From a virus (Duplodnaviria; Heunggongvirae; Uroviricota; Caudoviricetes): 64,000 bases of DNA. The position numbers and the translations under genes are program-made. How positions within the stretch are numbered: position 1 is the first letter of the stretch; every line of letters starts with the position of its first letter. The DNA is taken from IMG/VR virus record IMGVR_UViG_3300022660_000063, positions 1 to 64,000 of that record; one strand, given 5' to 3'. Below, one piece after another: positions 10,409 through 35,687 of the stretch. A model generated the notes under the pieces. That model saw only the letters and a program-made list of their open reading frames with translations, was not told the origin of the DNA and ran no database searches.

Positions 10409-10443
10409 AGATAGAGAAATCAGTTTACTTCTCTATCTTTTTA
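10409..10443 (+). terminator. intrinsic terminator after nrdG (stem agatagagaa/ttctctatct plus T-run)
   Basis: Perfect 10-bp inverted repeat with the -35 TTTACT in the loop, followed by TTTTT. Confidence 0.55.
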
Positions 10444-10452
10444 TTATATAAT
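10424..10452 (+). promoter_or_regulatory. sigma-70-like promoter P1 (TTTACT, 17 bp, TATAAT)
   Basis: -35 tttact 10424-10429, 17-nt spacer, -10 tataat 10447-10452. Confidence 0.6.
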
Positions 10453-10475
10453 ATATGATATAAAGAGGTGTTAAT

Positions 10476-10808
10476 ATGTTTATAGAAAAAGTAGAATTTA
10501 AACAAGATATAGCTTATGTATATGTAGCAGGATGTAGTAATAATTGCAAGCAATGCAGAAAGTCACCGCCAAAAGATAATAAGAATTTTAAGTATTTAGA
10601 TATTAAAAATACATTAATATCACAAATAAATAATAATGATATCTGTCAAGTTATAATAACAGGTAATGACCCTTTATATTGCGGTAATAAAAAAGATTTA
10701 CAAGATTTTGTGAGATCAATTTCTGTATTTAAGATCTCTATTATAAGCAAATATAATACTAACTGGTTTAACAATGAGAAACATATTGAGATTGTTTCAA
10801 ATGAATAA
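10476..10808 (+). CDS. short NrdG-like radical-SAM paralog (C-terminally truncated or degenerate)
   Basis: 'VAGCSNNCKQC' CxxxCxxC and 'ITGNDPLY' (compare nrdG FSGGDPFY); only 110 aa. Confidence 0.45.
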   Translation: MFIEKVEFKQDIAYVYVAGCSNNCKQCRKSPPKDNKNFKYLDIKNTLISQINNNDICQVIITGNDPLYCGNKKDLQDFVRSISVFKISIISKYNTNWFNNEKHIEIVSNE

Positions 10809-10882
10809 TTTTATATAAATATATTCAAAATCGGTTTGCTTTTTGTTAATGATAGTATATAATTATAATATAGGAGGTTAAC

Positions 10883-11260
10883 GTGATAAAATATAATATG
10901 AATCCAAAAGGCATAAAAGCTGGTGACTGTGTTATTCGTGCGATAGCTTATTCTCTAGATCAAACCTGGGAAGAAACCTATGATGATCTCTGCAAACTTG
11001 GAATGAAGATGAAAAGAATGCCGAATGAAAAACAAGTGTATGAAAAATACTTAGAACAAAAAGGTTGGGTAAAGCATAAGCAACCTAGAACATCATTTAA
11101 TACAAAATATACTGTATTTGAATTTATAGAGTATCAGATGGAGAGAAAAGCTATTATTTCAGTCGCTAATCATTTGACATGCGTCGATAATTTTGAATTA
11201 GTAGATACATGGGATTGTTCTAGAAAATCAATTGGTAATTATTGGACAAAGGAGGACTAA
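10883..11260 (+). CDS. hypothetical protein (GTG start)
   Basis: AGGAGG 5 nt upstream of GTG; 125 aa, no recognised motif. Confidence 0.4.
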   Translation: MIKYNMNPKGIKAGDCVIRAIAYSLDQTWEETYDDLCKLGMKMKRMPNEKQVYEKYLEQKGWVKHKQPRTSFNTKYTVFEFIEYQMERKAIISVANHLTCVDNFELVDTWDCSRKSIGNYWTKED

Positions 11261-11689
11261 ATGAAAAAACCTAGAGTGCTAGATGCTTATTTAAAAGAAT
11301 ATCAAAGAAAATTAAAAGAAGCTAGAGCTAATAAAAAAAGAAATAAAGATAAGCTATTTACTTTAACCGAAACTTCAATACAAACTATATTGCAAAATAA
11401 TATAAAAATTAAATATCCAGAGATTTCATTTAAAGTAGATAAATCTATATCCACTAATAGTTATTACATAATGTTCTTTTATGGTGATAGATATGTAACA
11501 ACAAGAATTAGTGATCATGAATCAAGAGTAGGGGCATTAGGAATCGTAGTTACACCTGATACAACTAAGAAAGAAGTTATTCAAGTTTTAGAGCAGCGCG
11601 TCATTGATTTAAAGTATAAATATAAAGCACATTTATTTAATAAATTTAAAGAAATAGAAAAGGAAAGAATATGAAAAAACAATACATAA
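11261..11689 (+). CDS. hypothetical basic protein; annotated TGA (11672) readable as Trp, extending 5 codons
   Basis: RBS AAGGAGG; ORF ends at TGA, then continues W-K-N-N-T-TAA. Confidence 0.4.
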
Positions 11690-11831
11690 TATCTTTTATA
11701 GATATTAATACAGGTTTACTAAGTTTTAATAAAAAATATGAATCCAACAGTAAGAAAGAAGCTTGTATTAAATTTAAACAAGATTATCCATATTGCCAAA
11801 TTATTACTGTATCTAAAATAGAGGTGAGTAA

Positions 11832-12134
11832 ATGAAATTAAAAGATTTAGAAAGACTTCTTAGAGGTAGCGTGAAATTTAAATTGCAAGCTAGAGTAGAA
11901 GATAGAATAGAAACATTAGATGAGGTATTAATTTATGAAATTAAATATTTGCCTTCTGGATTATTAAAAAGAGAAGTATTACAGATAGATTTAGATACTA
12001 ATGTGATTTTCTTGGATAAAATAAATGAAGAGGAGGCAGTCAAGAGATATGTAGAAATTGATTCTTTGCAATCTGTAGATGATTATAAAGAAAGTTTTTT
12101 AAATATTAAATATGAAGATTCTAATTTAATTTAA
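11832..12134 (+). CDS. hypothetical protein
   Basis: 100-aa ORF with RBS. Confidence 0.35.
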   Translation: MKLKDLERLLRGSVKFKLQARVEDRIETLDEVLIYEIKYLPSGLLKREVLQIDLDTNVIFLDKINEEEAVKRYVEIDSLQSVDDYKESFLNIKYEDSNLI

Positions 12135-12148
12135 GGAGATAAGAGAAA

Positions 12149-13195
12149 ATGAAAATTATATTCATTATTTTACCATTAATTTTATTAGCAGTAGGAATAA
12201 CTTGGGCTTGTTTTTCTGCTAAGAATTTGAAAGGACAAAAAGAAGTTGATACTCAAGTTGCTGAATATATTAGAGGAAAAAAGACAGTTACATATATTAA
12301 GAAACCAAAACTAATTCAATTGATTGCATCAAGCATACTTGCACTTGTAAGTTTCTTTGTGCTCATCATAGTACCAGGTAGCTATCATCAGATTGAAGCA
12401 GGACAAGTAGCTGTAGTAAAGATTTGGGGTGAAGCTAAAGAAGTTAGAACTCCAGGAATGCATTTTGATTTTTGGTTAAGTCATAAGTACGAAATTTATG
12501 ATACAAAAGTTCAACAGTCGACTATTCAAACACAGGCATATTCTAGTGATGGACAAACGATGGATATTGAGTTAGTAATTCAATTTCAAATTCAACAAGA
12601 AAATGCAATGAAAATAGCAACTAATTATGGTGGTCTTGAAATGCTACAATCAAGAATTGAAACAGTTGCTAATGAGAAAATGAAAAGTGTGTTATCTCAA
12701 AAATCCGCAATGAAAATAATTGAAACAAGAGCAACTGTATCACCAGATGTAGAAGAATCGATTAGAGCCGCAATTACAAACGACTATTATGTTAATATCA
12801 CAAGTGTTGTATTAACAGATATTAGTTTTAGTGATGCTTTTGAAAAAACCGTAGAAGATAAGATGATTGCAGAACAAGAAAAAATCAAAGCAGAGTATGA
12901 AAAAGAAAAAGCAATTATTCAAGCAGAACAACAACTAGAGGTTGCTAAAAAAGAAGCTGAAGCATTATTAGAAAAAGCAAAGAAAGAAGCTGAATCAGAG
13001 TTAGTACTTGCACAAGCAGAGGCAGAAGCTCTTGAAATAATGAATGCAACTTGGAATACTTTAACAGCAGAAGTTAAAGAAGCAATTTTAACTCAAATGG
13101 CGATAGACAAATGGGATGGTAAGTTACCTGAAACATTAGTAGGGGATGAATTCCTTAAAGAATTGTTAGGTTATATTGGAGGTTCAAATGCTTAG
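12149..13195 (+). CDS. SPFH/band-7 (HflC/stomatin-like) membrane protein
   Basis: N-terminal TM, 'GQVAVVKIWGEAKEVRTPGMHF' SPFH core, and a long Ala/Glu/Lys coiled-coil tail typical of HflK/C. Confidence 0.7.
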   Translation: MKIIFIILPLILLAVGITWACFSAKNLKGQKEVDTQVAEYIRGKKTVTYIKKPKLIQLIASSILALVSFFVLIIVPGSYHQIEAGQVAVVKIWGEAKEVRTPGMHFDFWLSHKYEIYDTKVQQSTIQTQAYSSDGQTMDIELVIQFQIQQENAMKIATNYGGLEMLQSRIETVANEKMKSVLSQKSAMKIIETRATVSPDVEESIRAAITNDYYVNITSVVLTDISFSDAFEKTVEDKMIAEQEKIKAEYEKEKAIIQAEQQLEVAKKEAEALLEKAKKEAESELVLAQAEAEALEIMNATWNTLTAEVKEAILTQMAIDKWDGKLPETLVGDEFLKELLGYIGGSNA

Positions 13196-13330
13196 TGCAT
13201 TATTCATAGTATCAGTATGGGTAACTTCTTGCCCACTTTGGTTTAGTATATTAGCTACTTGTTTGTGTGGACTTGACATATTAGCTGATGTTATAAAAGA
13301 TCATAAAGATAATTAATAATTTATACAAAA

Positions 13331-13364
13331 AGAATGAAATTTAGTTTACTTTTCATTCTTTTTA
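13331..13364 (+). terminator. terminator hairpin agaatgaaa...tttcattct plus T-run
   Basis: Perfect 9-bp stem with the -35 in the loop, then TTTTT. Confidence 0.55.
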
Positions 13365-13373
13365 TTATATAAT
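13345..13373 (+). promoter_or_regulatory. promoter P2 (TTTACT, 17 bp, TATAAT)
   Basis: tttact 13345-13350; tataat 13368-13373. Confidence 0.6.
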
Positions 13374-13404: not shown

Positions 13405-13806
13405 ATGACATTATTAGATTCTATAAATGGAGTAAATGTGATTGATGCTCATTATGCTTGGGGCAATCCTTATTACTGTAAATTAAATTTAGAGAATGGT
13501 GAAACTGTTACAATAACTACCGAAGAAGAGTTTAAAATTTTAAAACAAAAAGAAGAGGCTTTAATAGCAGAAAGAAAAGAAAAAGAAAGACTTGAGTGGA
13601 TAGAGCGAGAAAGAAATAGACCAATAGAATTTGGTCAGTATGTAATGTATGTTAGCTATAAGGATGGCTCTGGTAATGTTTTTGCTAGACATATTGAAAA
13701 AGATGAAATTGTTACTGAAAATTCAATAATGGCAGAACTTGAACTTGAATATGGTAAAAAAGTTAGCAATATTGATTTAGTTCCATTTTCAGAGATGGGG
13801 GATTAG
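13405..13806 (+). CDS. hypothetical protein
   Basis: GGAGG RBS then ATG 13405 (the track ORF 13378 starts upstream inside the promoter). Confidence 0.45.
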   Translation: MTLLDSINGVNVIDAHYAWGNPYYCKLNLENGETVTITTEEEFKILKQKEEALIAERKEKERLEWIERERNRPIEFGQYVMYVSYKDGSGNVFARHIEKDEIVTENSIMAELELEYGKKVSNIDLVPFSEMGD

Positions 13807-13808
13807 TA

Positions 13809-14897
13809 ATGTCTAATATAGATGAAGTAAGAACTCTAGCCAAATTAGTTGCTGATAAAATTAGAAAGGATAAATGTATGTTGAATATAAAAGAAATAAT
13901 AAGTAAACCTGAGTATAGATGGCTAGAAGAATATAAAGATAGATTATGCTTCTTAGTTATATCAGGTTCTCATGGATATGGTACTAATGTAGAAGGTAGT
14001 GATATTGATATAAGAGGAGTTATGCTACCCACTAAAGATGAATTGATTGGGTTAAAAACTTTTAAACAAAGAGAAGATTCGAGCACAGACACAACTATTT
14101 ATGAGTTTAATCAATTTATCAAACTTGCTATGGCAAATAACCCAAATGTGATTGAAATGTTAGGTTTCAAACATTATCTTATATTTAATGAAATTGGGCA
14201 TGACTTACTTGATAGTTTACCTTTATTATTAAGTAAAAAATGTTATCAAACATTTAATGGTTACGCAGTAGCGCAATTAAGAAAAATTGAAAATGCTTTA
14301 GCAAGTACTGAATATACTGAAGAAGAAAAAGTAAAACATATAAAGCAAACAATGGATGTTGCTATGATGAAACTATCTGAATCAAACAAATTATTTGCAG
14401 ACGGCTGTATAAATGTTACTGCAGATTTAGATAAACTTTATATTGACTGTAATATAAAACAAGCACCAATAGACCTAGTAAGAAGTTCTTTAAATGATAT
14501 ATTAACTATAGAAAAAAGTTATAATAAAATAAATCAAAGAAATACTAAACCAACTATGGAAAAATTGAATAAACATTGCATGCACTTATTTAGACTAATC
14601 ATAACTTGTTGTGAGATACTAGAGAAAGGTGTATTAAATTCTTATAGAGAAGATGATAGGGATTTTCTATTGGATATCAGAAATGGTAAGTTTATAAAAG
14701 ATGGTCATTTAACAGCAGAATTTACAAATACTTTAAATGGATTAAATAAAAGATTACAATTAGCAGAGAGACATTCTACATTGCAAAAAACACCTAATTA
14801 TGATGAATTGAATAAATTTGTCACCGATGTAAACAGTAAAGTTATAACTGATACTGTATTAAAATACAAAGAACCATTGGAGGAGATCATACTATAA
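13809..14897 (+). CDS. Pol-beta-superfamily nucleotidyltransferase domain protein
   Basis: 'LVISGSHGYGTNVEGSDIDIRGVM' (GS-x9-DxD minimal NTase motif) with a downstream acidic 'TDTTIYEF'; rest is helical. Confidence 0.55.
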   Translation: MSNIDEVRTLAKLVADKIRKDKCMLNIKEIISKPEYRWLEEYKDRLCFLVISGSHGYGTNVEGSDIDIRGVMLPTKDELIGLKTFKQREDSSTDTTIYEFNQFIKLAMANNPNVIEMLGFKHYLIFNEIGHDLLDSLPLLLSKKCYQTFNGYAVAQLRKIENALASTEYTEEEKVKHIKQTMDVAMMKLSESNKLFADGCINVTADLDKLYIDCNIKQAPIDLVRSSLNDILTIEKSYNKINQRNTKPTMEKLNKHCMHLFRLIITCCEILEKGVLNSYREDDRDFLLDIRNGKFIKDGHLTAEFTNTLNGLNKRLQLAERHSTLQKTPNYDELNKFVTDVNSKVITDTVLKYKEPLEEIIL

Positions 14898-15442
14898 TGA
14901 AAGTAGAAATTTTAAAACATCCAACCAAAGAAGATTGGAGATATGTTCGAAAATGTACGCTCAACACGGTAGGTAAAACATCTACAAAAGATGCAACGGA
15001 TGCTTGGAAAGTAAAATTACTTATGGCAGAACATTCACCTATAAGAGAATTATGGTTTGGTATTAAAATGGAGATACCTTATTATGTATCAGTTCATCTT
15101 GTAAGACATCATATTGGGGTTAATCATTATGTGCAAACACAAAGAGATGATAGAACAAATGATGCAACACCAAGAGCAGAAAAACCACAAGGTGCGATTG
15201 TATCTCATATTATGTCCATCAATGCACAAGAACTATTATTCTTGGCTCATAAAAGATTATGTAACCAAGCCTCACCTGAAACAAGAGATGTAGTAAAAGA
15301 AATCTGCAGACAAGTAATTGAGGTCAATCCAGAGTTCAAAGATTTACTTGTTCCACTTTGTGCATATAGAGGAGGCGTGTGCACAGAATTTAATCCATGT
15401 GGTTATAATAAAAAATTTCAAAATAGAGGTACCGAAAAATAA
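14897..15442 (+). CDS. ThyX-like (flavin-dependent thymidylate synthase family) protein with divergent motif
   Basis: 'HSPIRELWFGIKMEIPYYVSVHLVRHHIGVNHYVQTQRDDR' aligns to ThyX 'HeTPFEh..FtF.v.aPiFVarq.fRHRi.sYnE.SgRY'; RHR->RHH, S-x-R-Y->T-Q-R-D; 181 aa. Confidence 0.5.
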   Translation: MKVEILKHPTKEDWRYVRKCTLNTVGKTSTKDATDAWKVKLLMAEHSPIRELWFGIKMEIPYYVSVHLVRHHIGVNHYVQTQRDDRTNDATPRAEKPQGAIVSHIMSINAQELLFLAHKRLCNQASPETRDVVKEICRQVIEVNPEFKDLLVPLCAYRGGVCTEFNPCGYNKKFQNRGTEK

Positions 15443-15633
15443 TGGAGCAGAAGTTTTATGGGCAAGAGTGCTATTTCTGTGGAGGAGATTGTAAACATCA
15501 GATATTTGCAACTCCAGATGGTAGAATTTGTTGTAAAGAATGTGCAAATAAATTACAAAAAGGTGAGATGAGTTTAGATCCTAATGTAATAATATTATCT
15601 AAAGATGAATATGAAATAAAAGATTTTGAGTAA
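15442..15633 (+). CDS. small zinc-ribbon protein
   Basis: CYFCGGDC...CCKEC cysteine pairs. Confidence 0.4.
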   Translation: MEQKFYGQECYFCGGDCKHQIFATPDGRICCKECANKLQKGEMSLDPNVIILSKDEYEIKDFE

Positions 15634-15648
15634 ACTAATGAAAAATAG

Positions 15649-15677
15649 TTTACTTTTCTTTTTCAATAATATATAAT
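15649..15677 (+). promoter_or_regulatory. promoter P3 (TTTACT, 17 bp, TATAAT) preceded by inverted repeat GTAAACTA..TAGTTTAC
   Basis: tttact 15649-15654; tataat 15672-15677; inverted repeat 15630-15637 / 15646-15653. Confidence 0.6.
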
Positions 15678-15704: not shown

Positions 15705-15899
15705 ATGTTTCATGATAATTATAAAGTATACCAAACAGGTTTTGGTGAATATGGGGTAGAGGTAGAGTTTTGGAATTTCATTAGTGAGAAAGTAGAAACT
15801 CTTAACTTTGATAAATTAAATGAAGAACATTTAAATAAATTGATTGATTTATTAACCAAACTTGATTTTGATGATAGAACACCAGATAAAGGAGAATAA
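15705..15899 (+). CDS. hypothetical small protein
   Basis: AGGAGG RBS; 64 aa. Confidence 0.4.
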   Translation: MFHDNYKVYQTGFGEYGVEVEFWNFISEKVETLNFDKLNEEHLNKLIDLLTKLDFDDRTPDKGE

Positions 15900-15902
15900 T
15901 AT

Positions 15903-16463
15903 ATGAATTATGAATATAAAGATGAAAATATATATTTAAAATTGATAGAGGGTAATATCTATCGAGTAAAAGATAATAAAGATGTTAAATTAACAGAAGG
16001 CTATCATATACCTTATTTTACTTTTATAACAGAATTTGATGATAAATTATATTTTAAATATGATGAAAAATCATTTTATTATGATAAAAAATATAATATA
16101 ATTTATTTTGAATCTAAAAATAAGTTTATCTATAAAATAAATGGTAAAGATGTATCAAAAGAACAATTTGAAATTGAATTTCAAAAGCGGGTAGAAACTT
16201 ATATACCTTACAGTGAATATTGGCCAAAGAAAGAAGATTTAAGAAAAAACTTGCAAGAGCGTAGGGAGATGTGGTTTCCAACCTATGATAAAAGATATAA
16301 AGATAAGTTAGTTATTATCGATAAAGATTACTTTATGGCATGCGAAGAAGAGATACTTGAAATTGCAAATCTTGTAGAAGAAAATGAATATGATCCAGAA
16401 GATAATGATTCACTTAGAATTGCTATTGCATTATGGAATGCAGGATATAGAAAAGGAGAGTAG
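15903..16463 (+). CDS. hypothetical protein
   Basis: 186 aa, Lys/Tyr-rich; RBS present. Confidence 0.4.
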   Translation: MNYEYKDENIYLKLIEGNIYRVKDNKDVKLTEGYHIPYFTFITEFDDKLYFKYDEKSFYYDKKYNIIYFESKNKFIYKINGKDVSKEQFEIEFQKRVETYIPYSEYWPKKEDLRKNLQERREMWFPTYDKRYKDKLVIIDKDYFMACEEEILEIANLVEENEYDPEDNDSLRIAIALWNAGYRKGE

Positions 16464-16464
16464 T

Positions 16465-16815
16465 ATGAAAAAGAAAGGAAGATGCTGTTTTTGCAATGTT
16501 GAATATGATAATTATGGAAATGACATAAGACCATTAATTACTACTTCTGGAGATAGATGTTGTGATAAATGCAATGTATTAATTGTAATTCCAAATAGAA
16601 TTAAATTCTGGTTTACAGACATGTATATGTATGTTATTAAAAATAGAGATACAGGTGAATTTATAAATGAGTATGGTTTAGGTACAAATTACACTAATAT
16701 TGCAGATCCTACTGTATTAAAATTTAAAACAGAAGAAGATGCTCAACATCATATCGATATTGACCAATTATTTAATTGTGAAATTGTTAGATTAATTGTA
16801 AGAGAGGACGATTAA
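16465..16815 (+). CDS. Cys-rich (zinc-binding) hypothetical protein
   Basis: ATG 16465 after GGAGAG; 'CCFCNVEY...CCDKCNV'. Confidence 0.4.
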   Translation: MKKKGRCCFCNVEYDNYGNDIRPLITTSGDRCCDKCNVLIVIPNRIKFWFTDMYMYVIKNRDTGEFINEYGLGTNYTNIADPTVLKFKTEEDAQHHIDIDQLFNCEIVRLIVREDD

Positions 16816-16816
16816 T

Positions 16817-18088
16817 ATGGAGATAAAATTACCAAAATATGTTGAATTACTAATAAACATGTTAAATGAAAATGGTTATGCAGCATATGCAGTTGGTGGC
16901 GCTATTAGAGATTCTATATTAGGTATTGAACCAAAAGATTGGGATATAGCAACAAGTGCTTTACCTGCTGAAACAAAGAAACTATTTGAAGATAATAGTT
17001 TTCACAAGAGTGATATGGATATTTATTTTAAAGTTATTCCAACAGGAGAAAAATATGGCACTATGACTATTGAAGTTATAGAAAAATATAAATTAAATAA
17101 ATATGAACATCTTGCAGGTATTTATGAAATAACCACATTTAGATATGATAGCGATTACACTGATGGTAGAAGACCAAATAATGTAACTTTTGGTGAATCT
17201 ATTATAGATGATTTAGATAGAAGAGATTTTACTATGAATGCTATTGCTTATAACCCATTAGTAGGTATAGTAGACCCACATAATGGTGTTGAAGATATTA
17301 AAAATAAAATAGTTAAAGCAGTAGGAGACCCACAGGTTAGAATAAAAGAAGATGCTTTGAGAATTTTAAGGGGCATTAGATTTGCTTGTAAGTATAATTT
17401 TGAGTTAGAGAATGCAACAAGCAATGTTATAGCGGGTACTGGTAGTCTCTTAAAGAATGTATCAAAAGAAAGAATTACTGAAGAAGTTAAGAAGATATTA
17501 GAATATTCAAAAGGTAATTCTGAAACTTTAAATTCAACAATAGAAACACTAGCAGAGATATTTGAGATACCTCAAAACAAAGTAAGTAAATGGGGTAGTA
17601 ACCAGGTCATCATAGATATAGATAATGACAACCCACCTATGTTAAAGTTGTATTCAATATTGAATAAGTATAAGTCAATGATAGATGCAGAAATTTGGAT
17701 GAGGTTATATAAATATAGTAACCAACAAATCAAAGAGGTTATTAGCTATTATAAGATGTCAAAGTTTATGGAAGATGTTCAGCAACAAGATATTGTCCTA
17801 ACAATCAAGCAACTATTCAATAAATTTGAACATGCATACGTATGCAAGTATTTGGGTATTTACACAAAAATAGAAGGAATAGATTTGTCAGAAATTACAA
17901 GTCAACCATATAGATTACAAGACTTGGCAATAGATGGGCACTTTCTTCAATCTACATTTGATATAAGTGGTGAGAAGATAGGTAAGGTTCTTAATTTCTT
18001 ATTAGGCAAAGTTATGGAGAATTCCCAACTAAACACAATAGAAACTTTATCTGAAATTACAAGGAGATACTTAAATGGAGAAAATTAA
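16817..18088 (+). CDS. cca: CCA-adding tRNA nucleotidyltransferase / poly(A) polymerase family
   Basis: Head-domain motifs 'AVGGAIRDSILG', 'DWDIAT' and 'RRDFTMNAIAY'. Confidence 0.8.
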   Translation: MEIKLPKYVELLINMLNENGYAAYAVGGAIRDSILGIEPKDWDIATSALPAETKKLFEDNSFHKSDMDIYFKVIPTGEKYGTMTIEVIEKYKLNKYEHLAGIYEITTFRYDSDYTDGRRPNNVTFGESIIDDLDRRDFTMNAIAYNPLVGIVDPHNGVEDIKNKIVKAVGDPQVRIKEDALRILRGIRFACKYNFELENATSNVIAGTGSLLKNVSKERITEEVKKILEYSKGNSETLNSTIETLAEIFEIPQNKVSKWGSNQVIIDIDNDNPPMLKLYSILNKYKSMIDAEIWMRLYKYSNQQIKEVISYYKMSKFMEDVQQQDIVLTIKQLFNKFEHAYVCKYLGIYTKIEGIDLSEITSQPYRLQDLAIDGHFLQSTFDISGEKIGKVLNFLLGKVMENSQLNTIETLSEITRRYLNGEN

Positions 18089-18485: not shown

Positions 18486-18498
18486 AAGGAGAGAACAA

Positions 18499-19894: not shown

Positions 19895-20767
19895 ATGAAA
19901 CAACTTATTAGAAATTCAACCTTTGAAACAAATAGCAGTTCAATGCATAGTTTAGTTATATCTAAGAAAGTTAAACCTTACTCAGTTAGTGATAAATCAT
20001 TGCACTATTATGGCAATGATTTTGAACTATTTGGATGTTGTGATACTCATTCTTTTGGAAGAACACCTTTTGAAGTTTTATCTAGTCCAAAAGATAAACT
20101 AAGATATTATGTAGCACATTATGTAGGTTTCAAAAAAGAAAAAGAAAGGTTAAAAGAAGTTGAAGATCTTGTTTATGAGCTTACAGGATGTTCTAGGGAG
20201 AAAATAAAATTATATTGTGAAGAAGAATACCCTTGGAAAAAGAAACCAGAAAAATCTTATGGATATGCTGGTATAAATGACACAGGCGAAGATGTATTTG
20301 ATTATATTGAAAAGAATAATATATCTTTGAGAGAATTTATCCTTGACCCTAGGTACACTGTTATTGTAGATGGTGATGAATACCAAGAGTTTAAAAAATT
20401 ATTTAAAAAAGGTATTATTGATTTAGATAATATAGATTATATATCTAGTGGTAAGCATTTTTGGATTGATGATATTAAAACATTTAGTCTATATTACATT
20501 AATAGATTTGTAAATGATGATGTTTATAATGAATTTATGGAAGAGATAGATAATTATAATAATGAATTTATAAAATGTATTGAAATAGAAGATGAAGAGG
20601 ATGTTGATATAAATCAATCAGCTATGATAACATTTGCATCAGTATTAGAATGTTTTAAGCATTTAACTTATGGCAGAAATATACCAATCAAACTTATTCT
20701 TAAAACTCATTCACTAGATGATTTTAAACCAATATTAAAATATATAAGTTTAGAAGTTGATAATTAA
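19895..20767 (+). CDS. member B (290 aa) of the 'MKQxIRNxTFETNSSSxHSL' family
   Basis: N-terminus MKQLIRNSTFETNSSSMHSL, then unrelated acidic C-terminal region. Confidence 0.5.
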   Translation: MKQLIRNSTFETNSSSMHSLVISKKVKPYSVSDKSLHYYGNDFELFGCCDTHSFGRTPFEVLSSPKDKLRYYVAHYVGFKKEKERLKEVEDLVYELTGCSREKIKLYCEEEYPWKKKPEKSYGYAGINDTGEDVFDYIEKNNISLREFILDPRYTVIVDGDEYQEFKKLFKKGIIDLDNIDYISSGKHFWIDDIKTFSLYYINRFVNDDVYNEFMEEIDNYNNEFIKCIEIEDEEDVDINQSAMITFASVLECFKHLTYGRNIPIKLILKTHSLDDFKPILKYISLEVDN

Positions 20768-20800
20768 TTATCAACTTTTTTATTTTTCTGTTAAAATTAG

Positions 20801-20829
20801 TTTACTTTTTAATCATAATCTTATATAAT
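20801..20829 (+). promoter_or_regulatory. promoter P4 (TTTACT, 17 bp, TATAAT)
   Basis: tttact 20801-20806; tataat 20824-20829; preceded by ttaaaa/ttttaa hairpin and a T-run. Confidence 0.6.
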
Positions 20830-26882: not shown

Positions 26883-26966
26883 ATAATATTTGACCCAGAT
26901 TATATACTGCAAGAAGATTGTGAAAGTAATGAATAATAAAATTTAAAGTAAACTAGTTAAAATTAG

Positions 26967-26995
26967 TTTACTTTTTCTTTTTATTGATATATAAT
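26967..26995 (+). promoter_or_regulatory. promoter P5 (TTTACT, 17 bp, TATAAT) with inverted repeat GTAAACTA..TAGTTTAC
   Basis: tttact 26967-26972; tataat 26990-26995; inverted repeat 26948-26955 / 26964-26971. Confidence 0.6.
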
Positions 26996-27336: not shown

Positions 27337-27340
27337 TAAT

Positions 27341-29236: not shown

Positions 29237-29264
29237 AAATTTTAAAGTAAACTATGAAAATTAG

Positions 29265-29293
29265 TTTACTTTTTTATTATAATATTATATAAT
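29265..29293 (+). promoter_or_regulatory. promoter P6 (TTTACT, 17 bp, TATAAT) with inverted repeat GTAAACTA..TAGTTTAC
   Basis: tttact 29265-29270; tataat 29288-29293. Confidence 0.6.
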
Positions 29294-29321: not shown

Positions 29322-29750
29322 ATGTTTGAATATGCACCAGATATTAAAGTCGGAGATGTATTTACTAGAATTGATAAAAATGGTAAAGTTTGGAAAGCTG
29401 AAGTTATTAACAGAACAGAGTATTTTGTTGATGTTAAGAAAACTCAACAATACCAAATTAAAGTATGTGATGTTGAACCAATAAGACAAAGGAGATTTTA
29501 TAATAGTACTTGGCATTCTAAGGATGTTGGCGGTGTGTTTCATTATGAAGATGCTGAACCTACTTCTGAAAGGGCTCAAATAAATATTGAATATGAAGAG
29601 TATGAGACAGGTGAAATAGAAGAAAGTATATGGGGTACATATAAGAAAACCGCAAAAAGACCTACTGGTAAATATTTTATAGCTATTAAAGAAGATTATA
29701 GCAAATATTCACAATATGATAAATTATATTTTATAGATAAAAGGAGTTAA
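29322..29750 (+). CDS. hypothetical protein
   Basis: RBS present; 142 aa. Confidence 0.4.
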   Translation: MFEYAPDIKVGDVFTRIDKNGKVWKAEVINRTEYFVDVKKTQQYQIKVCDVEPIRQRRFYNSTWHSKDVGGVFHYEDAEPTSERAQINIEYEEYETGEIEESIWGTYKKTAKRPTGKYFIAIKEDYSKYSQYDKLYFIDKRS

Positions 29751-29751
29751 T

Positions 29752-30129
29752 ATGTTAAATAAAATTTGGAAAGTAAAAGGAAATGAGATCAACACAGTAG
29801 CAGAAGTTAAAGATGCTATATATGGTATCATTCTAGAGAATAAATTTGGATCTAGTGTTTATGATAAAGAATTAATTACCGGTTATAAATTCTCTTATTC
29901 AGATGAAGAGATATTTAATAAATTAAATGATTTAAAATTGAATTATAAAATATTTGCTTTAAAGGAAATAAAACGACCTGCAATATTCACAGAAGAGATA
30001 GATAATATCATAAATGATATCGTAATTGAGAATAAAGATGAATTAGAAGAGTATTCGATTACTGAAACAAATATGGATAATCTACTTAAAAAGTTAAAAG
30101 AAAAATTGGACATTAAATTAAAGGAGTAG
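29752..30129 (+). CDS. hypothetical protein
   Basis: RBS present; 125 aa. Confidence 0.4.
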   Translation: MLNKIWKVKGNEINTVAEVKDAIYGIILENKFGSSVYDKELITGYKFSYSDEEIFNKLNDLKLNYKIFALKEIKRPAIFTEEIDNIINDIVIENKDELEEYSITETNMDNLLKKLKEKLDIKLKE

Positions 30130-30134
30130 TAAAT

Positions 30135-32066
30135 ATGATAAATGAATTAAATGAAATATTTGAAGCATATTTAAAGGCTACTGGAAAAGATCCTACAGAT
30201 AATTCTATTAGGTTTGGTGTTGAAAGTGATGCTCTTTGCCATAAAGCAAAAAATTATTTAGATATAGATAATACTGGACTATTAAGTGTATTAACTATGA
30301 GAGAAGCTTACAAATCTTTTATTAAAGAACATTACTATACTATTGAAGAATTACTTGATGGTAATTGGTATGAAGAAAAGAAAAAATTTGTTCATGTTGA
30401 ATATTTATTGAATTCAGGTAAAGCCGGAGAAGTGTACCATAAATTCATAGATTTAATCATTAAACATGCTTCAGTGTTAGGTAAAAATTATACAGAAGAA
30501 GATATTGAATCTATTAAAAAGATAGAAAATATCATAACTAAAGCTATTGAAAAGTTTAATAATAAATATTCTTTTAAGCATGAGAAATTTAGTGAAGGTG
30601 AAATTAAAATAAATAAAAATGTAACAATACTCCCTAGATTATATAGATTTCAACATTTAAAATTATTTGTAGATAAAATGAAAAATGCAAGTGAAGATAA
30701 TTTTATATGTATGGCTTTGATAGATAGAACAAACGAAAAGATTGAAGATGAATACTATGATAATAACTTAGATTCTTTCTTTGCTTTTGGTTTTAAGAAT
30801 AATGGTGTCGTATGGGTAGTATCAGATAGGGTAACTTATGATAGTCCTGAAGGTGCTTTTAAGTCTAGAAACCCTGGCAGAGCTATGAGAGATAAGATAG
30901 ACTATGATTGGTTACCTTATTATAAATTAGATAAGATAAAGCAATCAAATGAGCATGTGAATCAAGTATTATTACCTTTTAATGATAACGCAAAAGAAAG
31001 TGGCTATAATATAGTTGATCTATTTGATGATGAAGGTGTTATATATTCTACTTTAATAATGACTTTAATTTACAACAAATATTTCTGCAATTCAATAGAA
31101 GAAAACTTTAATAGGAAATACTTCTCGTCTGAAGTAAAATTATTACCACTCAATGATTCTAAAGCTTTAGTATCTTCTAATGAGCTACAGTTGCCTATTC
31201 TTCCGAATAATATCAAAGCAGATACTTATATCTATGAAGGTAAATCATATTCAAATTCATTATTTGATTATTTAATTGATCAATACCCATTAAAAACAGA
31301 ATTACCTATATTAAAAAGTTTTATTGGAGATAAGGAAACAGCTGAAAAATATATCTGGTGGAATATCAGAAAACAACAAAAGGATCATATAGAAGCTTGT
31401 TTAAAAGAGCAAGATAACTATGAAGGGCGTAAAAAATTAGAAGACTGGCACCAAAATAATATTTCTAAAAATATTAAATCCATAGTTAAAATAATGATAG
31501 AAACACCTGATAGAGATGGGTTTAAAGATAACTATAAGAATAGTTATTCTAACAATAATCAAGATAATAGAAAAATGTTTTGGGAAGCATTTAGAGATAA
31601 TGACGATTTAAATACTTATAGTTTAAAAACTTTTGAAAATGAGCATAAACAATCTTTTGCTAGATATGATGGTTATACTGAAACTGACTATGGTAATATT
31701 TACTATAGTTTATATGGTACGAGAAATTATATTTGGTTTGCTAATGACAATGATAGAAAGTACTGTGAAATAGAATTAATATTAAGAAGCCATAGCGATT
31801 TAGAAAAATTTTTTAATATAACAAATGAAGAAATACCTCAGGTACTGAGAAAACATTTTTATTCTAGATCTAGTGCATGTACATTATATTCATGGAAACC
31901 TTATACTGGAAATAGTATTTTAGAATTTACTGATCCAATGAATGAGATAAAAGATCCATTTGAAGATTTTGGGTGTCATATAAGTATAGTATTATCTAAA
32001 TCAAAATTAAAAGAGTTAAAAAGAAAAATTCAGATAAAAGCTCATGAAATTAATTTACTTTTATAA
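30135..32066 (+). CDS. large hypothetical protein (643 aa)
   Basis: Long ORF with RBS; no motif recognised. Confidence 0.45.
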   Translation: MINELNEIFEAYLKATGKDPTDNSIRFGVESDALCHKAKNYLDIDNTGLLSVLTMREAYKSFIKEHYYTIEELLDGNWYEEKKKFVHVEYLLNSGKAGEVYHKFIDLIIKHASVLGKNYTEEDIESIKKIENIITKAIEKFNNKYSFKHEKFSEGEIKINKNVTILPRLYRFQHLKLFVDKMKNASEDNFICMALIDRTNEKIEDEYYDNNLDSFFAFGFKNNGVVWVVSDRVTYDSPEGAFKSRNPGRAMRDKIDYDWLPYYKLDKIKQSNEHVNQVLLPFNDNAKESGYNIVDLFDDEGVIYSTLIMTLIYNKYFCNSIEENFNRKYFSSEVKLLPLNDSKALVSSNELQLPILPNNIKADTYIYEGKSYSNSLFDYLIDQYPLKTELPILKSFIGDKETAEKYIWWNIRKQQKDHIEACLKEQDNYEGRKKLEDWHQNNISKNIKSIVKIMIETPDRDGFKDNYKNSYSNNNQDNRKMFWEAFRDNDDLNTYSLKTFENEHKQSFARYDGYTETDYGNIYYSLYGTRNYIWFANDNDRKYCEIELILRSHSDLEKFFNITNEEIPQVLRKHFYSRSSACTLYSWKPYTGNSILEFTDPMNEIKDPFEDFGCHISIVLSKSKLKELKRKIQIKAHEINLLL

Positions 32067-32110
32067 GTAATTATTGTATAATATAAATAATTAATAAGGA
32101 GATTATAAAA

Positions 32111-32581
32111 ATGGATAAAGAATTCGAAAAACAGTTAGAGGATTTTTATCAAGGTTATAGGGATAGAGCCAACTGGCCTTTGTGCGATGGGATACGGGTT
32201 GACGACCTTGCAAGAGACACCGCCAAATTTTTTAAAAAATTTAAAAGCGTGCAATTTACTAATACTAAAGATGAGCAAATTAAAAGAAGAATTGCTATCT
32301 ATGAAAAACAATTTATTGAGCAAACCAATGAGAATTACGAACTCAAACAACAACTTGCAGAGAAAGAAAAAGAGTTTAATTGGCTACATCAAAAGTTTGC
32401 AAAATTTGTAGAAAGCAACCAAGATAAAATCTCATTCGCAGTAGAGCGAATTAAAAATTTAAAATCGTTGATATTAAATAGCTGGCGAAAGAATTATTGT
32501 AACTTATTTTTAGACGATATTGAAGAAATAATCGACAACCAAGTAGAACAACTCAAAAAGGAGATGATGAAAAGTGAGTAA
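32111..32581 (+). CDS. coiled-coil hypothetical protein
   Basis: Heptad-rich; RBS present. Confidence 0.4.
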   Translation: MDKEFEKQLEDFYQGYRDRANWPLCDGIRVDDLARDTAKFFKKFKSVQFTNTKDEQIKRRIAIYEKQFIEQTNENYELKQQLAEKEKEFNWLHQKFAKFVESNQDKISFAVERIKNLKSLILNSWRKNYCNLFLDDIEEIIDNQVEQLKKEMMKSE

Positions 32582-33062
32582 ATGTGTTAAATGCGGAAAT
32601 GAAATTTTAACAGGAGATATCCATTGGGAAATGGGCTTATGTAACAACTGTTATAATGAATTATATAAAGACCATAAAACTCATATTAGTTTGGATAATA
32701 TGTGGTTGAAACTTGCTCAAGATTTTAGAGATGAGAACGAAAAATTGCAAGACAAGGTAACCGACCTAGAAGCAAAACTAGTATTGAAATCTTCATTTAG
32801 TAAGTTTACATTATCTGACGAGTTATATAAATTATATATAAATTTGGAAAGAGAATATACAAAATCAAGCCAAGAAATTGCTGAGAGAGGTAAAGAAATT
32901 GAAAAATTAAGAGTTATGTTAGATACCTCTTTAACAAAACTCCATAAAGCAAGGAGGAAAATAAATAGAGTATTATTGAAAATAGCTAAATTTGAAGCCG
33001 AATTAGATAATTATACTATACAAAATGAAACTTTCTTAAAGAGAGGCAATCAGCATGAATAA
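32574..33062 (+). CDS. zinc-ribbon plus coiled-coil hypothetical protein (GTG start)
   Basis: CVKCGN...CNNC. Confidence 0.35.
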   Translation: MSKCVKCGNEILTGDIHWEMGLCNNCYNELYKDHKTHISLDNMWLKLAQDFRDENEKLQDKVTDLEAKLVLKSSFSKFTLSDELYKLYINLEREYTKSSQEIAERGKEIEKLRVMLDTSLTKLHKARRKINRVLLKIAKFEAELDNYTIQNETFLKRGNQHE

Positions 33063-34035
33063 AGATATAAAAATAATAGGATTAGACATAGCAGAAGATA
33101 GGTTACCTAAACTGGTTGTGATGTGTGGTTTGCAAGGTTCCGGTAAATCAACTATTGCAGAAGAATTGAGTTTGAAATATAACATGATTGTATTATCTAG
33201 TGATAAATTAAGAAAAGAATTTCCAGATGAGAACAATGAATTTATTTTTAGACGCTTATATAATCAAGCAAATATAGCTTTGAAACAAGGATTAAATGTT
33301 ATCCTAGATGCAACTAATATTACAATTAAATCTAGAAAACAAATATTTTTAAATATAAAAGAACCTTGTAAAAAGATTTGTTACATAGTAAACACGCCTT
33401 ATGAAGTATGTATAGAAAGAGTTAAAAAAAGAAATGAAGATATAAATTCTCATCAAGTTCCATTAGAAGTGGTTAGAAGATATTTAGAATCTTTTGAAGT
33501 ACCTTTTTATGAAGAAGGATGGGACAACATATTACTGTATAATATTATAGGGCATAATGAGTCTGTAGAAAATTTTAATAATATGATGAAATCTGCATTT
33601 GGATTTGACCAACATAATAAACATCATACTCAATTATTACATGAACATTTAGAATCGGTTGCTAATCAATTATATGATATAGATAATGTTTTATATGAAG
33701 CAGGATTATTACATGATATAGGCAAACTTGATACGCAGACATATAAAGAAAATGACCCTAATGCACATTACTATAATCATGCCAATGTTGGTGCTTATAA
33801 AGTATTATGTAATTATATGTCTTGGTATATGATAGAACAATTAGGAGAAGATTATCCTAAATATGATACTACATTAGATATAGTATTTTACATAAATTAT
33901 CATATGCATATGTATAATATTAAAACTGAAAAATCTGAAAGGAAGTGGAGACAAGTATTTGGGGATATAAAATTTAATAATTTAAAATTGTTAAATGAAG
34001 CTGACCAATTTAATCATAGTAAGGAGATAAAATAA
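33055..34035 (+). CDS. polynucleotide 5'-kinase (T4 Pnk-like P-loop) fused to an HD phosphohydrolase domain
   Basis: Walker A 'MCGLQGSGKST' and 'ILDATNITIKSRKQ' (Pnk-like); C-terminal 'HHTQLLHEHL....GLLHDIGKL....YNHANVGAY' HD motifs. Confidence 0.75.
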   Translation: MNKDIKIIGLDIAEDRLPKLVVMCGLQGSGKSTIAEELSLKYNMIVLSSDKLRKEFPDENNEFIFRRLYNQANIALKQGLNVILDATNITIKSRKQIFLNIKEPCKKICYIVNTPYEVCIERVKKRNEDINSHQVPLEVVRRYLESFEVPFYEEGWDNILLYNIIGHNESVENFNNMMKSAFGFDQHNKHHTQLLHEHLESVANQLYDIDNVLYEAGLLHDIGKLDTQTYKENDPNAHYYNHANVGAYKVLCNYMSWYMIEQLGEDYPKYDTTLDIVFYINYHMHMYNIKTEKSERKWRQVFGDIKFNNLKLLNEADQFNHSKEIK

Positions 34036-34703
34036 TGACAGATTTGGAAATGAAGAAATTAGCAGAATGTACAAGAGAAGAATTAATTGATATAATTATC
34101 AGTATGGATAAACAATTAGAATCAAATAATTCTTTAAAAGAAAGTATTGCAAGAGGAATTAAAGAAGGTTTAACACCACCTAATACTTTAGATATAAAAG
34201 ATGGGCAAATTTATGTGAAAAGCAATAATGATTGGTCTTTCCAAGATTGTAGTTATGCAGTCACTTCTCAATTAGATGAATTTAAAAGACTTGCAAAAGA
34301 AGCTCAAGAAATAAATAAAGAAATAGATTTTGTTATTAAAGATAAATTTTTAAATTATAAATTTATTAGCGGTAAAGATGATAGATTTAAAATAGGTAAG
34401 TTAGAAGTCTTAGACCCATTTAATGTAACTGACACAGAAATTAATGCACGAAAAGAAACATTAAAAAATTTAAAGTTATTAATGTCTGCTTACAAATTAG
34501 GTTTTGATGATTTTGCAAAAAATAACTATTTTATTGCTTATACTCATTTCAAAGAAATAATAAAAGAATCTAAATTAAAAGAGAAACATAAAGAAGATAT
34601 TTTGAATAAAGCTTGGAAAGATTATGCTAATTATTGGGATCTTTATAATACGCCTATATATGTAAATATTGATACCACAAAAGAGGGTTCTGTGAATGAA
34701 TAA
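34035..34703 (+). CDS. hypothetical protein
   Basis: 222 aa with RBS. Confidence 0.4.
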   Translation: MTDLEMKKLAECTREELIDIIISMDKQLESNNSLKESIARGIKEGLTPPNTLDIKDGQIYVKSNNDWSFQDCSYAVTSQLDEFKRLAKEAQEINKEIDFVIKDKFLNYKFISGKDDRFKIGKLEVLDPFNVTDTEINARKETLKNLKLLMSAYKLGFDDFAKNNYFIAYTHFKEIIKESKLKEKHKEDILNKAWKDYANYWDLYNTPIYVNIDTTKEGSVNE

Positions 34704-34929
34704 AGACCAAGAATTGCTAATGAAGATAATGTTTGATAAACAACTTTCAAAAAGAGATGATAAAACTATTTTAGAAAGCATTAAAACTGAGATAAAATCA
34801 GAAGAATTAAAATTAGAAGATACTTCGTACAATTCTGCTTTTTCAGCTGGTTGGATACTCGGTTCTATCCATACATATCATAAAGTAGAAGAAATATTGG
34901 ATAAATGATTGAAAGGTTTATAAAAAGAT
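34696..34929 (+). CDS. hypothetical small protein; TGA at 34906 readable as Trp, extending 7 codons
   Basis: ORF continues ...DKW LKGL then TAA. Confidence 0.35.
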
Positions 34930-35075
34930 ATAAAATTTTTAAAAAGGAATTAATTATGATAGAAGGGTTACTAATTCTTATAGCGACATTATTATTTTTT
35001 TTAGTTGCGATTATTTTAGTAAAATATTAACTAAGGAATTAATATTATTAAAAATAACAAGGAGAAATTAATAAA

Positions 35076-35630
35076 ATGAATCAAAAAATTAGAAATAATA
35101 CATTCGAAACAAATAGTTCATCTATTCATAGCTTAGCAATTTGCAAAACGGATAAAACAGATACCCAGTTTGAATTATTAGCTTCAGAATATGAAGTAAA
35201 TATTCCATTGGAAAATTTTGATTATGATATGATACTAGATGAGCCTTATGATATATTATCATATTTATATAGTTACTCGGTAGTATCTAAATATTGGAAG
35301 CTATATGATCTAATTATCAAAACTTTTCCAAATTGCATTTTTGAAAAACCTAGATATGATTTGCCTTGGAATAGTAAAAAAGGTTATTGTAATGATAGAT
35401 CTATAATAAGTTTTTGTGATGTTATAAATTGTCATATGGCACCATTATTAGAAAAAAATGCGCAAGAATATATTTTAGATCATCTTGCAAAAGTTGTTTT
35501 TTCAAGTAAAATATGTATAATGAGAGATCTAAATTTTGGTAATTATATAGATGAAAGAGATGATATAATTGACAAAGAAAAATATAAAAAAGAAAATTTT
35601 GAAATAATATTTGATGAAGAAGAATTTTAA
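35076..35630 (+). CDS. member D (184 aa) of the 'MKQxIRNxTFETNSSSxHSL' family
   Basis: N-terminus MNQKIRNNTFETNSSSIHSL. Confidence 0.5.
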   Translation: MNQKIRNNTFETNSSSIHSLAICKTDKTDTQFELLASEYEVNIPLENFDYDMILDEPYDILSYLYSYSVVSKYWKLYDLIIKTFPNCIFEKPRYDLPWNSKKGYCNDRSIISFCDVINCHMAPLLEKNAQEYILDHLAKVVFSSKICIMRDLNFGNYIDERDDIIDKEKYKKENFEIIFDEEEF

Positions 35631-35658
35631 ATAATTCTTCTTTTTTAATGAAATTTAG

Positions 35659-35687
35659 TTTACTTTTTATTTTGTATAATATATAAT
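35659..35687 (+). promoter_or_regulatory. promoter P7 (TTTACT, 17 bp, TATAAT)
   Basis: tttact 35659-35664; tataat 35682-35687 (an extended -10 TGTATAAT also lies at 35673-35680). Confidence 0.55.

Follow-up and report, generated by a model that had tools for sequence, protein, structure and literature searches.

A 64-kb stretch of an uncultured caudoviricete genome (positions 1 to 64,000 of IMG/VR virus record IMGVR_UViG_3300022660_000063; hereafter, the window) carries nine promoter-like modules, seven of which include a hairpin followed by a T-run. The modules share one sequence anatomy, far exceed the number expected by chance and are conserved in related phages, where the paired bases of the hairpin covary with the -35 hexamer. 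They are most likely composite cassettes in which an intrinsic terminator is joined to a sigma-70-family promoter that the host RNA polymerase would recognize through its main sigma factor. The promoter and terminator activities, their early timing and the use of the host sigma factor by the modules are predictions from sequence.

A promoter pattern repeated at nine sites

The pattern TTTACT-N17-TATAAT was found eight times in the window, each time on the + strand (positions 10424, 13345, 15649, 20801, 26967, 29265, 32054, and 35659). In 100 dinucleotide-preserving shuffles, the expected number was 0.18 and the maximum was 2, which rules out a chance origin of the set. When one mismatch was allowed, 18 matches were obtained versus 5.7 expected, and the sole additional match that was both intergenic and well placed was TTTGCT-N17-TATAAT at position 10835.

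The resulting nine modules all lie on the coding strand, between genes or at a gene end, and a start codon with a Shine-Dalgarno sequence (AGGAG) follows the -10 hexamer by 19 to 34 nt at every one of them. When aligned on the -35 hexamer, they yield the consensus tGAAAWTTAG-TTTACT-TTT ... aTATAATAt, followed by AGGAG and the start codon; the A-rich flank tGAAAWTTAG 5' of the -35 is common to all nine. Compared with sigma-70/sigma-A promoters, the -10 hexamer matches at six of six positions, the -35 matches TTGACA at four of six, and the spacer is 17 nt long throughout. GTTTAC is found at seven sites (the others being ATTTAC at 32054 and GTTTGC at 10835), with GAAAW preceding it at most of them.

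Broader searches added little. A generic promoter scan was uninformative, with 159 promoter-like matches versus 143 expected. Exact-pattern scans of IMG/VR and of metagenome contigs returned 63 and at least 120 stretches, respectively, nearly all of which matched only once and were not related to the window. These numbers are close to the chance level in AT-rich DNA and are therefore uninformative about the spread of the modules.

The modules are as follows (z scores are for folding relative to shuffled sequences; dG is the folding free energy).

Module 1, 10406..10452, + strand: hairpin 10406-10441 with a 13-bp stem (AAAAGATAGAGAA/TTCTCTATCTTTT), dG -13.5 kcal/mol, z -4.0; -35 TTTACT 10424-10429 in the loop; T-run in the spacer; -10 TATAAT 10447-10452; ATG at 10476
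Module 2, 10835..10863, + strand: promoter only, TTTGCT-N17-TATAAT preceded by AAAATCGG; no hairpin (z +1.1); GTG start at 10883
Module 3, 13327..13373, + strand: hairpin 13327-13363 with a 13-bp stem, z -4.8; -35 13345-13350 in the loop; -10 13368-13373; ATG at 13405
Module 4, 15628..15677, + strand: hairpin 15628-15655 (GAGTAAACTA/TAGTTTACTT), z -3.1; 3' arm formed by -35 15649-15654; T-run after the hairpin; -10 15672-15677; ATG at 15705
Module 5, 20752..20829, + strand: separate hairpin 20752-20779 with a 12-bp stem and a TTTTTT tail, z -5.0; -35 20801-20806, 22 nt 3' of the hairpin; -10 20824-20829; ATG at 20853
Module 6, 26945..26995, + strand: hairpin 26945-26974 with a 13-bp stem (AAAGTAAACTAGT/ATTAGTTTACTTT), z -3.8; 3' arm formed by -35 26967-26972; -10 26990-26995; ATG at 27030
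Module 7, 29244..29293, + strand: hairpin 29244-29272 with an 11-bp stem, z -4.0; 3' arm formed by -35 29265-29270; -10 29288-29293; ATG at 29322; within the hypervariable interval between the RNA ligase gene RnlA and the polynucleotide kinase (PNK) gene
Module 8, 32044..32082, + strand: promoter only, ATGAAATTAA-TTTACT-N17-TATAAT; no hairpin (z +0.4); ATG at 32111; overlaps the last codons of gene 30135-32066, which encodes a 643-amino-acid (aa) protein
Module 9, 35616..35687, + strand: separate hairpin 35616-35643 with an 11-bp stem (GAAGAAGAATT/AATTCTTCTTT) and T-run, z -4.6; -35 35659-35664, 16 nt 3' of the hairpin; -10 35682-35687; ATG at 35712

Hairpins overlap the promoter in five modules

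The seven hairpins lie 3' of stop codons on the coding strand, and each is followed directly by a U-run in the predicted transcript. Their stems span 10 to 13 bp, with dG values of -9.1 to -13.5 kcal/mol, z scores of -3.1 to -5.0 and 4 to 11 nt between the arms. The -35 hexamer is located in the loop of two hairpins (10424 and 13345), makes up the 3' arm of three (15649, 26967, and 29265; AAAGTAAACTA ... TAGTTTACTTT) and lies downstream of a separate hairpin in the remaining two (20801 and 35659). The stems at 10424, 13345, 20801, and 35659 are unrelated in sequence. A scan for AT-rich stems followed by a T-run produced 24 + strand candidates. Nine had stems of at least 11 bp; all of these were intergenic, and six belonged to modules. 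It is this combination of stem length and T-run, together with the per-hairpin shuffles, that sets the modules apart from the background. A search of Rfam matched no family.

Seven of the sites had been listed in a sequence-only reading of the window as copies with identical TTTACT and TATAAT hexamers and a 17-nt spacer. We found all seven, plus the hairpin-less eighth copy at 32054 that it had missed. Its assignment of the sites as promoters agrees with the perfect -10, the fixed spacer, the -35-like hexamer and the start codon placed 19 to 34 nt further on behind a Shine-Dalgarno sequence. Terminator-like and promoter signals do form one unit, as it had proposed, with hairpin, T-run and promoter contained within ~45 to 80 bp. 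The geometry required correction. A repeat with a T-run is present at all seven sites, but at five of them it encloses or overlaps the -35 instead of immediately preceding the promoter. Conversely, placing the -35 in the hairpin loop or arm is correct for these five and not for 20801 and 35659, where it lies 22 and 16 nt downstream. The repeat that had been described as often GTAAACTA-N7-TAGTTTAC occurs in exactly this form only at 29265; the same arms are separated by N8 at 15649 and 26967, and the other four stems are unrelated to it.

Modules are conserved in relatives, with covariation

Relatives were found through the RnlA-like ligase and an RlaP-like protein. They are uncultured contigs of ~140 to 150 kb, and ~21 kb of each was compared with the window. 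Protein-seeded scans of IMG/VR with two module neighbors, RnlA and the 643-aa protein, returned no relatives, and a scan seeded with the DNA ligase returned one distant relative (53%) with no modules at its locus.

Two contigs, L065 and L067, are ~84% identical to the window over 16.9 to 40.6 kb and have modules at four positions, corresponding to 20801, 26967, 29265, and 35659. In L191 and L069, modules are present wherever the position falls within the span of the contig. Counterparts of 13345 and 20801 are found in L194, and the module at 20801 is kept in L065, L067, L194, and L190. Throughout the orthologous modules of L065, L067, L191, L194, L190, and L069, both hexamers and the 17-nt spacer are retained while the middle of the spacer drifts. 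Such a pattern, with fixed hexamers at a fixed distance around a variable spacer, is what promoter function would predict.

The -35 hexamer itself varies among orthologous modules, staying within the TTGACA family: TTTGCT in L065 and L067 (the variant also seen in module 2), TGTACT in L191, TTTACA in L190, and TTGACT in L194. TTGACA-18-TATAAT follows RnlA in L190, and distant relatives have -35 hexamers of the canonical type at the same positions (TTGACT in L193, L194, and L196; TTGATC in L196 and L197).

The stems change in sequence and keep their pairing. At the orthologs of 35659, the arms are GAAGAAGAATT/AATTCTTCTTT in the window, AAAGAGAATTT/AAATTCTCTTT in L067, and AAAGAGAACTT/AAGTTCTCTTT in L191, and the stem of L065 also differs from that of the window and still pairs; these stems were read from per-sequence folds, as the MAFFT/RNAalifold alignment mis-registered this hairpin. 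The L194 ortholog of 13345 has TTGACT in the loop and stem arms lengthened by GG/CC. In L192, whose RnlA next to the 26967 ortholog is 58% identical, this module has TTGATT as its -35 and AAGAATCA as its 5' arm; the still more distant L193, L196, L197, and L215 have the 3' arm TAGTTGACTTT, TAGTTGATCTT, or TAGTTGGTCCC, each with a matching 5' arm. The consensus fold of the 26967 orthologs comprises 13 pairs; at 4 of them both bases have changed in a compensatory manner, and the 11 core pairs are intact in every ortholog aligned. A change at position 3 of the -35 is matched by one at the base it pairs with in the 5' arm, with T-A found 15 times and G-C 6 times. Across 22 related loci, TATAAT was found no more than 20 nt 3' of a hairpin with a T-run in 26 of 98 cases on the + strand versus 5 of 80 on the noncoding strand.

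The layout in which the -35 serves as the 3' arm is kept, with covariation, at orthologous sites down to ~45 to 58% identity of the neighboring RnlA. Placement of the -35 inside the terminator is thus old in this lineage. Both the base pairing and the -35-like hexamer are under selection, and their covariation is a clean natural case of one DNA stretch under two constraints. By the same comparison, the TTTACT of the window appears to be a recent variant in which G was replaced by T and, in compensation, C by A in the opposite arm.

Points against a terminator-promoter cassette

Several observations weigh against this explanation. TTTACT matches TTGACA at only four of six positions, and no module has an extended -10. 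The flank tGAAAWTTAG is conserved beyond the needs of an ordinary UP element, so an additional factor could bind there. Two of the nine promoters (10835 and 32054) lack a hairpin, with folding z scores above 0. None of the seven module hairpins was reported by a generic terminator scan; the scan demands at least three G-C pairs and misses these hairpins because their stems are AT-rich. With 0 to 3 G-C pairs, the stems depart from the G+C-rich stems expected of intrinsic terminators, and termination may therefore be partial. The 62-nt windows around the modules were not extreme relative to the genome-wide folding background. Finally, most insertions and deletions that distinguish the window from its relatives are not located at modules.

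GTTTAC words and alternative explanations

GTTTAC is enriched in the window (27 occurrences versus 12.1 ± 3.2 expected); GTAAAC is not (23 versus 16.6 ± 3.9). Among the clusters of these words noted in the sequence-only reading, those at 4415-4499 and 38228-38285 and the palindrome at 38455-38477 are real, but 54160-54181 reads TGTAAA...TTTACA and does not contain GTTTAC. The first two include tandem -35-like pairs.

4415..4433, + strand: tandem pair GTTTACATAGGAGTTTACT, just after the gene for single-stranded DNA-binding protein (SSB), without a usable -10
38267..38285, - strand: tandem pair GTTTACACTGGAGTTTACT followed by T6, at the right edge of the module block; kept in L065 and L067

The pair GTTTACAnnGGAGTTTAC occurs exactly twice in the window versus 0.2 times expected, at 4415-4432 on the + strand and at 38268-38285 on the - strand, and its two inverted copies flank a 34-kb block containing all nine modules. 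They could mark the borders of a block through which transcription is relayed from module to module. The copy at 38285 is part of a perfect leftward TTTACA-N17-TATAAT in L065; L067 and the window have only a poor -10 there, and with its -10 not conserved, a minus-strand promoter at this site is an uncertain candidate. The pair at 4415 may be a decayed half-module. The most economical reading of the stray pairs, by analogy with the PeSL cassettes of T4-like phages (compared below), would be as degraded copies that keep only their -35 boxes.

The same words had led the sequence-only reading to propose a phage-specific regulator or processing site, and we consider it quite improbable that the inverted repeats and GTTTAC/GTAAAC words bind a phage-encoded regulator, such as a repressor of early promoters, or an RNA-processing enzyme. 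The idea draws on the perfect palindromic arms of 9 to 13 bp centered on the -35 in three modules, the roughly 2-fold enrichment of GTTTAC and the unusually conserved flank 5' of the -35, as well as on the two tandem pairs outside a promoter context, the right copy of which is kept in two relatives, and on the palindrome at 38455-38477, whose symmetry is kept in L067 by a double change (the palindrome is absent from L065). It fails to account for the arms of four of the seven hairpins, which do not contain GTAAAC, or for the T-run after every hairpin, and a rigid dimer would not tolerate arm distances ranging from 4 to 11 nt. In relatives the word is replaced (TTGAC, TTGAT, or TTGGT) and the other arm follows; selection is on the pairing and not on the word. 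A dimer reading GTAAAC/GTTTAC is therefore unlikely, GTAAAC shows no overall enrichment, and degraded PeSL copies with only -35 boxes (PMC4122927) would account for the stray clusters. It is more improbable still that a phage RNA polymerase or sigma factor reads the modules, or that they are hairpin promoters like those of phage N4. In favor of such a reader are a noncanonical -35 that is identical in all exact copies, its overlap with the hairpin in five modules, and a lineage that is large (~140 to 150 kb in relatives) and poorly annotated, so that a polymerase or sigma factor could have gone undetected; none was matched among the proteins of the window. The promoter of the N4-type virion RNA polymerase is a short DNA hairpin at a fixed position, without -10 and -35 boxes. 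In the modules, the position of the hairpin varies (loop, arm, or 16 to 22 nt upstream) and two promoters have none, so the hairpin is not the recognition feature; the -10 and -35 boxes are invariant, and on this anatomy the candidate was rejected. The combination of a perfect TATAAT with a TTGACA-like hexamer at a distance of exactly 17 nt marks promoters of the sigma-70 family, and relatives have canonical TTGACA or TTGACT at orthologous sites.

Some modules appear to have moved with genes. Relative to L067, the promoter at 32054 and two open reading frames (ORFs) form an insertion of ~1 kb (~32030-33062), positions 32056-33062 of the window being replaced there by 20 bp. The breakpoint lies ~25 nt 5' of the -35, which places the A-rich flank within the insertion. 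The insertion changes the C-terminal end of the 643-aa protein and extends to the start codon of PNK; because of this overlap, it has no 3' terminator of its own. In L065, an insertion carrying an additional 80-aa ORF coincides exactly with the left edge of module 29265, and the RnlA-PNK interval contains different genes in the window, L065, L067, and L191, with the module always present. These comparisons suggest that cassettes travel with genes and that at least 32054 arrived with its two ORFs. Together with the near identity of paralogous modules within one genome, which suggests homogenization, and with the mini-circles shown to form between PeSLs in RB49 and phi1 (PMC2839356), they might be taken to mean that the modules are chiefly recombination linkers, shuffled like PeSLs or inserted like morons, with transcription a secondary role. 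We regard this as very unlikely. Several deletions or insertions, such as those at 18911-19663, 22190-22668, and 27337-27639, lie 0.4 to 1.4 kb from any module, which leaves the link between modules and rearrangement suggestive only, and transcription, not recombination, explains the strict 17-nt spacing, the placement ahead of a Shine-Dalgarno sequence and the T-runs. Such a role would in any case be compatible with terminator-promoter cassettes, not opposed to them.

Predicted transcription units

If the modules are terminator-promoter cassettes, a transcript arriving from upstream would fold the AT-rich hairpin and be released in the T-run, and a new transcript would begin a few bases after TATAAT, with a short leader carrying only the ribosome-binding site. 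Given the AT-rich stems, the terminators are probably leaky, and the module hairpins would probably be attenuators more than full stops. The block from 10.4 to 38.3 kb, which contains genes for nucleotide metabolism and RNA repair and small genes without assigned function, would be cut into about nine insulated units of 0.4 to 6 kb.

Unit 1, 10476-10808, + strand (predicted)
Unit 2, 10883-13316, + strand (predicted)
Unit 3, 13405-15633, + strand (predicted)
Unit 4, 15705-20767, + strand (predicted)
Unit 5, 20853-26882, + strand (predicted)
Unit 6, 27030-29236, + strand (predicted)
Unit 7, 29322-32066, + strand (predicted)
Unit 8, 32111-35630, + strand (predicted)
Unit 9, 35712-38263, + strand (predicted)

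A reset at each unit start would even out expression and allow units to be added or lost without disturbing their neighbors. The result is a predicted transcription map, with nine starts and seven stops, for part of an uncultured and nearly unannotated phage lineage. The modules could also be used as compact insulator parts for AT-rich Gram-positive hosts.

In the five cassettes in which hairpin and promoter share bases, the extended -35 (TAGTTTACTTT) is the descending arm of the hairpin or lies in its loop, and the U-run is the first part of the 17-nt spacer. One conceivable use of this overlap is a hand-off, in which RNA polymerase frees its transcript at the U-run, stays on the next spacer, regains sigma and reinitiates at once. 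Early transcription would then pass along the units as a relay, being reset at every step without fresh recruitment. Retention of bacterial polymerase after termination, sliding and reinitiation have been documented in vitro (PMC6978380, PMC6978322, PMC10372574). We consider the hand-off itself unlikely, and the relay that would follow from it equally so. Were it true, the persistence of the -35 inside the terminator over ~45% to 100% RnlA identity would make this lineage a natural system selecting that pathway.

Other regulatory sequences in the window

A second motif, GCTAAATTTA, has six exact copies on the + strand (2540, 38530, 41305, 50833, and 58524, plus 44768 inside a gene). Five of the six are located 8 to 25 nt 5' of a Shine-Dalgarno sequence, often right after a hairpin. 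L065 and L067 retain the motif 5' of the gene with a Cu/Zn superoxide dismutase domain, and L193 has it as well. The motif may represent a second promoter class, middle or late, serving genes outside the module block.

The strongest hairpin of the window, at 5607-5647, has a 16-bp stem and a T-run. It is followed by TGTATAAAT, a promoter of the extended -10 type without a -35, just 5' of nrdD. In L194, TGTATAAT follows hairpins at two sites.

The 300-nt intergenic region 38264-38566 lies at the border between the early-type block and a block of large proteins without assigned function, and its identity to L067 (87.5%) is above that of much coding sequence. It contains three palindromes, namely, TATATAAGCGCTTATATA, a hairpin with an 11-bp stem (38345-38369), and TGTAAACTC-N5-GAGTTTACA. 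It could be an origin or a control region.

Gene content and likely host

The window has a G+C content of 27%, and all of its credible genes are on the + strand. They encode the anaerobic ribonucleotide reductase NrdD/NrdG, peptide deformylase, SSB, a CCA-adding enzyme, RNase H, RNA ligases, PNK, an ATP-dependent DNA ligase and a PARP-like ADP-ribosyltransferase, alongside many unmatched ORFs. This gene set is that of a large phage. RnlA, PNK, NrdD/G, and the ligase are auxiliary genes of the T4-like kind; T4 core or structural genes had no PHROGs or Pfam match in the 64 kb, and a tRNA scan of the window found no tRNA gene.

Megablast against phage records gave no DNA-level match to the window, and tblastn did not find a cultured relative. 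The closest NrdD proteins, at 64.5% identity, are those of Thomasclavelia phages, and other proteins are 30 to 40% identical to those of huge uncultured phages or Bacillus phages. More distant relatives of the window were binned with metagenome-assembled genomes of gut Clostridia (such as Oscillospiraceae and Acutalibacteraceae), from which we infer that the host is likely an AT-rich anaerobic member of the Bacillota.

The ATG of module 26967 opens just 24 codons (27030-27104), and the DUF4313 ORF at 27067-27336 lies in another frame and would start with TTG; a single 102-aa gene directly follows the corresponding module in L067. The arrangement at 27030-27336 is shared with L069, a 98%-identical contig, and may be a frameshift or a pseudogene. 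The PARP-like gene (21008-22177) comes after module 20801 and a 51-aa ORF, an order seen in all relatives examined, and L194 additionally carries an ART-PolyVal gene (5922-6842).

In-frame TGA is apparently read as sense in seven ORFs (3824-4411, 5095-5586, 8814-9398, 41965-43689, 44192-45058, 45058-45927, and 61980-62993), which are lengthened by 150 to 490 nt as a result. Pfam domains span the TGA in SSB (match at aa 97 to 184, TGA at aa 142) and in a formate/nitrite transporter (aa 7 to 179, TGA at aa 159). This usage is sparse, with 16 in-frame TGA versus 212 TGG codons, and TGA still ends genes at ATGA overlaps. It resembles that of the partly TGA-recoded "Agate"-type gut phages (bioRxiv 10.1101/2021.08.26.457843).

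A diversity-generating retroelement occupies 59933-62993. Its reverse transcriptase is encoded at 61980-62993 (RVT_1, E value of 1.6e-19), its template repeat is at 61719-61825, and gene 59933-61243 contains the variable repeat (61129-61235) at its 3' end; the repeats differ at 16 positions, each of them an A in the template. NrdD (5681-8776) is 1,031 aa long and includes a segment of ~300 aa (approximately residues 412 to 718) outside NrdD profiles. An HNH endonuclease is annotated at the matching place in Thomasclavelia phage TR-TP1, the source of the closest phage NrdD homologue, and nrdD of L194 is split by GIY-YIG and HNH genes. The extra segment is probably an intein or an intron-borne homing endonuclease. 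Auxiliary genes unusual for a phage (1250-1969, 8814-9398, 38567-40036, 41965-43689, and 48195-48722) comprise those for peptide deformylase, the formate/nitrite-type transporter, inorganic pyrophosphatase, a 489-aa protein with an N-terminal Cu/Zn superoxide dismutase domain and a protein with a rubrerythrin/ferritin-like C-terminal domain.

Comparison with known systems

Like intrinsic terminators, the module hairpins consist of a stem-loop followed by a U-run, just 3' of stop codons and on the coding strand, with an A-tract before the stem that mirrors the U-run. Unlike them, they have stems with 0 to 3 G-C pairs and dG values of -9 to -13.5 kcal/mol, outside the usual G+C-rich definition. 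Lambdoid morons are reportedly independent promoter-gene-terminator units placed between conserved genes. The 32054 promoter and its two ORFs resemble a moron in being inserted between two conserved genes and bringing their own promoter, but the insertion lacks a 3' terminator of its own, and the other modules are at conserved positions instead of being strain-specific additions.

In T4, the Alt protein modifies the polymerase alpha subunits and favors early promoters with GTTTAC. The PARP-like gene of the window recalls Alt, although no Alt homologue was identified in the window. T4 early promoters have GTTTAC at -36 to -31 and an A-rich stretch at -40 to -44 (Nolan et al. 2006, PMC1524935), and the modules are similar in having GTTTAC in place of TTGACA (AGTTTACT preceded by GAAAW), an A-rich stretch at the same position, and TATAAT. 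The host and the phage lineage differ. TTGAC occupies these sites in close relatives, which makes the T-for-G change look recent and specific to this lineage, a product of drift and not of common ancestry with T4.

The closest parallel is the PeSLs (promoter-early stem-loops) of T4-like myoviruses, known from RB49/phi1, PST/T4, and nt-1/KVP40 (Arbiol et al. 2010, PMC2839356; Comeau et al. 2014, PMC4122927). These repeated intergenic cassettes of T4-like phages combine a strong early promoter of the sigma-70 type, an AT-rich flank, a terminating or attenuating stem-loop, and a Shine-Dalgarno sequence with start codon; reporter assays demonstrated both the promoter and the terminator activities, the stem-loop position, which in some cases overlaps the -35, defines five subclasses, and recombination between copies gave rise to indels and mini-circles (PMC2839356). 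The PST/T4 promoter consensus is TTTACW-N17-TAYWAT, and degraded copies keep only their -35 boxes (PMC4122927).

The window has every one of these sequence-level features: repeated boxes spaced by 17 nt, a stem-loop at seven of nine sites, the AT-rich flank, and the Shine-Dalgarno sequence with start codon. Both systems consist of many near-identical intergenic copies of the sigma-70 type with essentially the same consensus, include subclasses in which the stem-loop overlaps the -35, and are linked to small ORFs without assigned function and, suggestively in the case of the modules, to insertions or replacements in close relatives. They differ in that the modules, known from sequence alone, belong to an uncultured lineage of 27% G+C with a likely Gram-positive host, have long AT-rich stems where PeSLs have G-tract/C-tract stems, and are only partially associated with indels; the layout with the -35 as the 3' arm is, moreover, deeply conserved with covariation. 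The modules thus reveal no new kind of mechanism, the design having already been described in T4-like phages. As far as sequence organization goes, they suggest that the PeSL design also occurs outside the T4-like phages that infect Gram-negative hosts.

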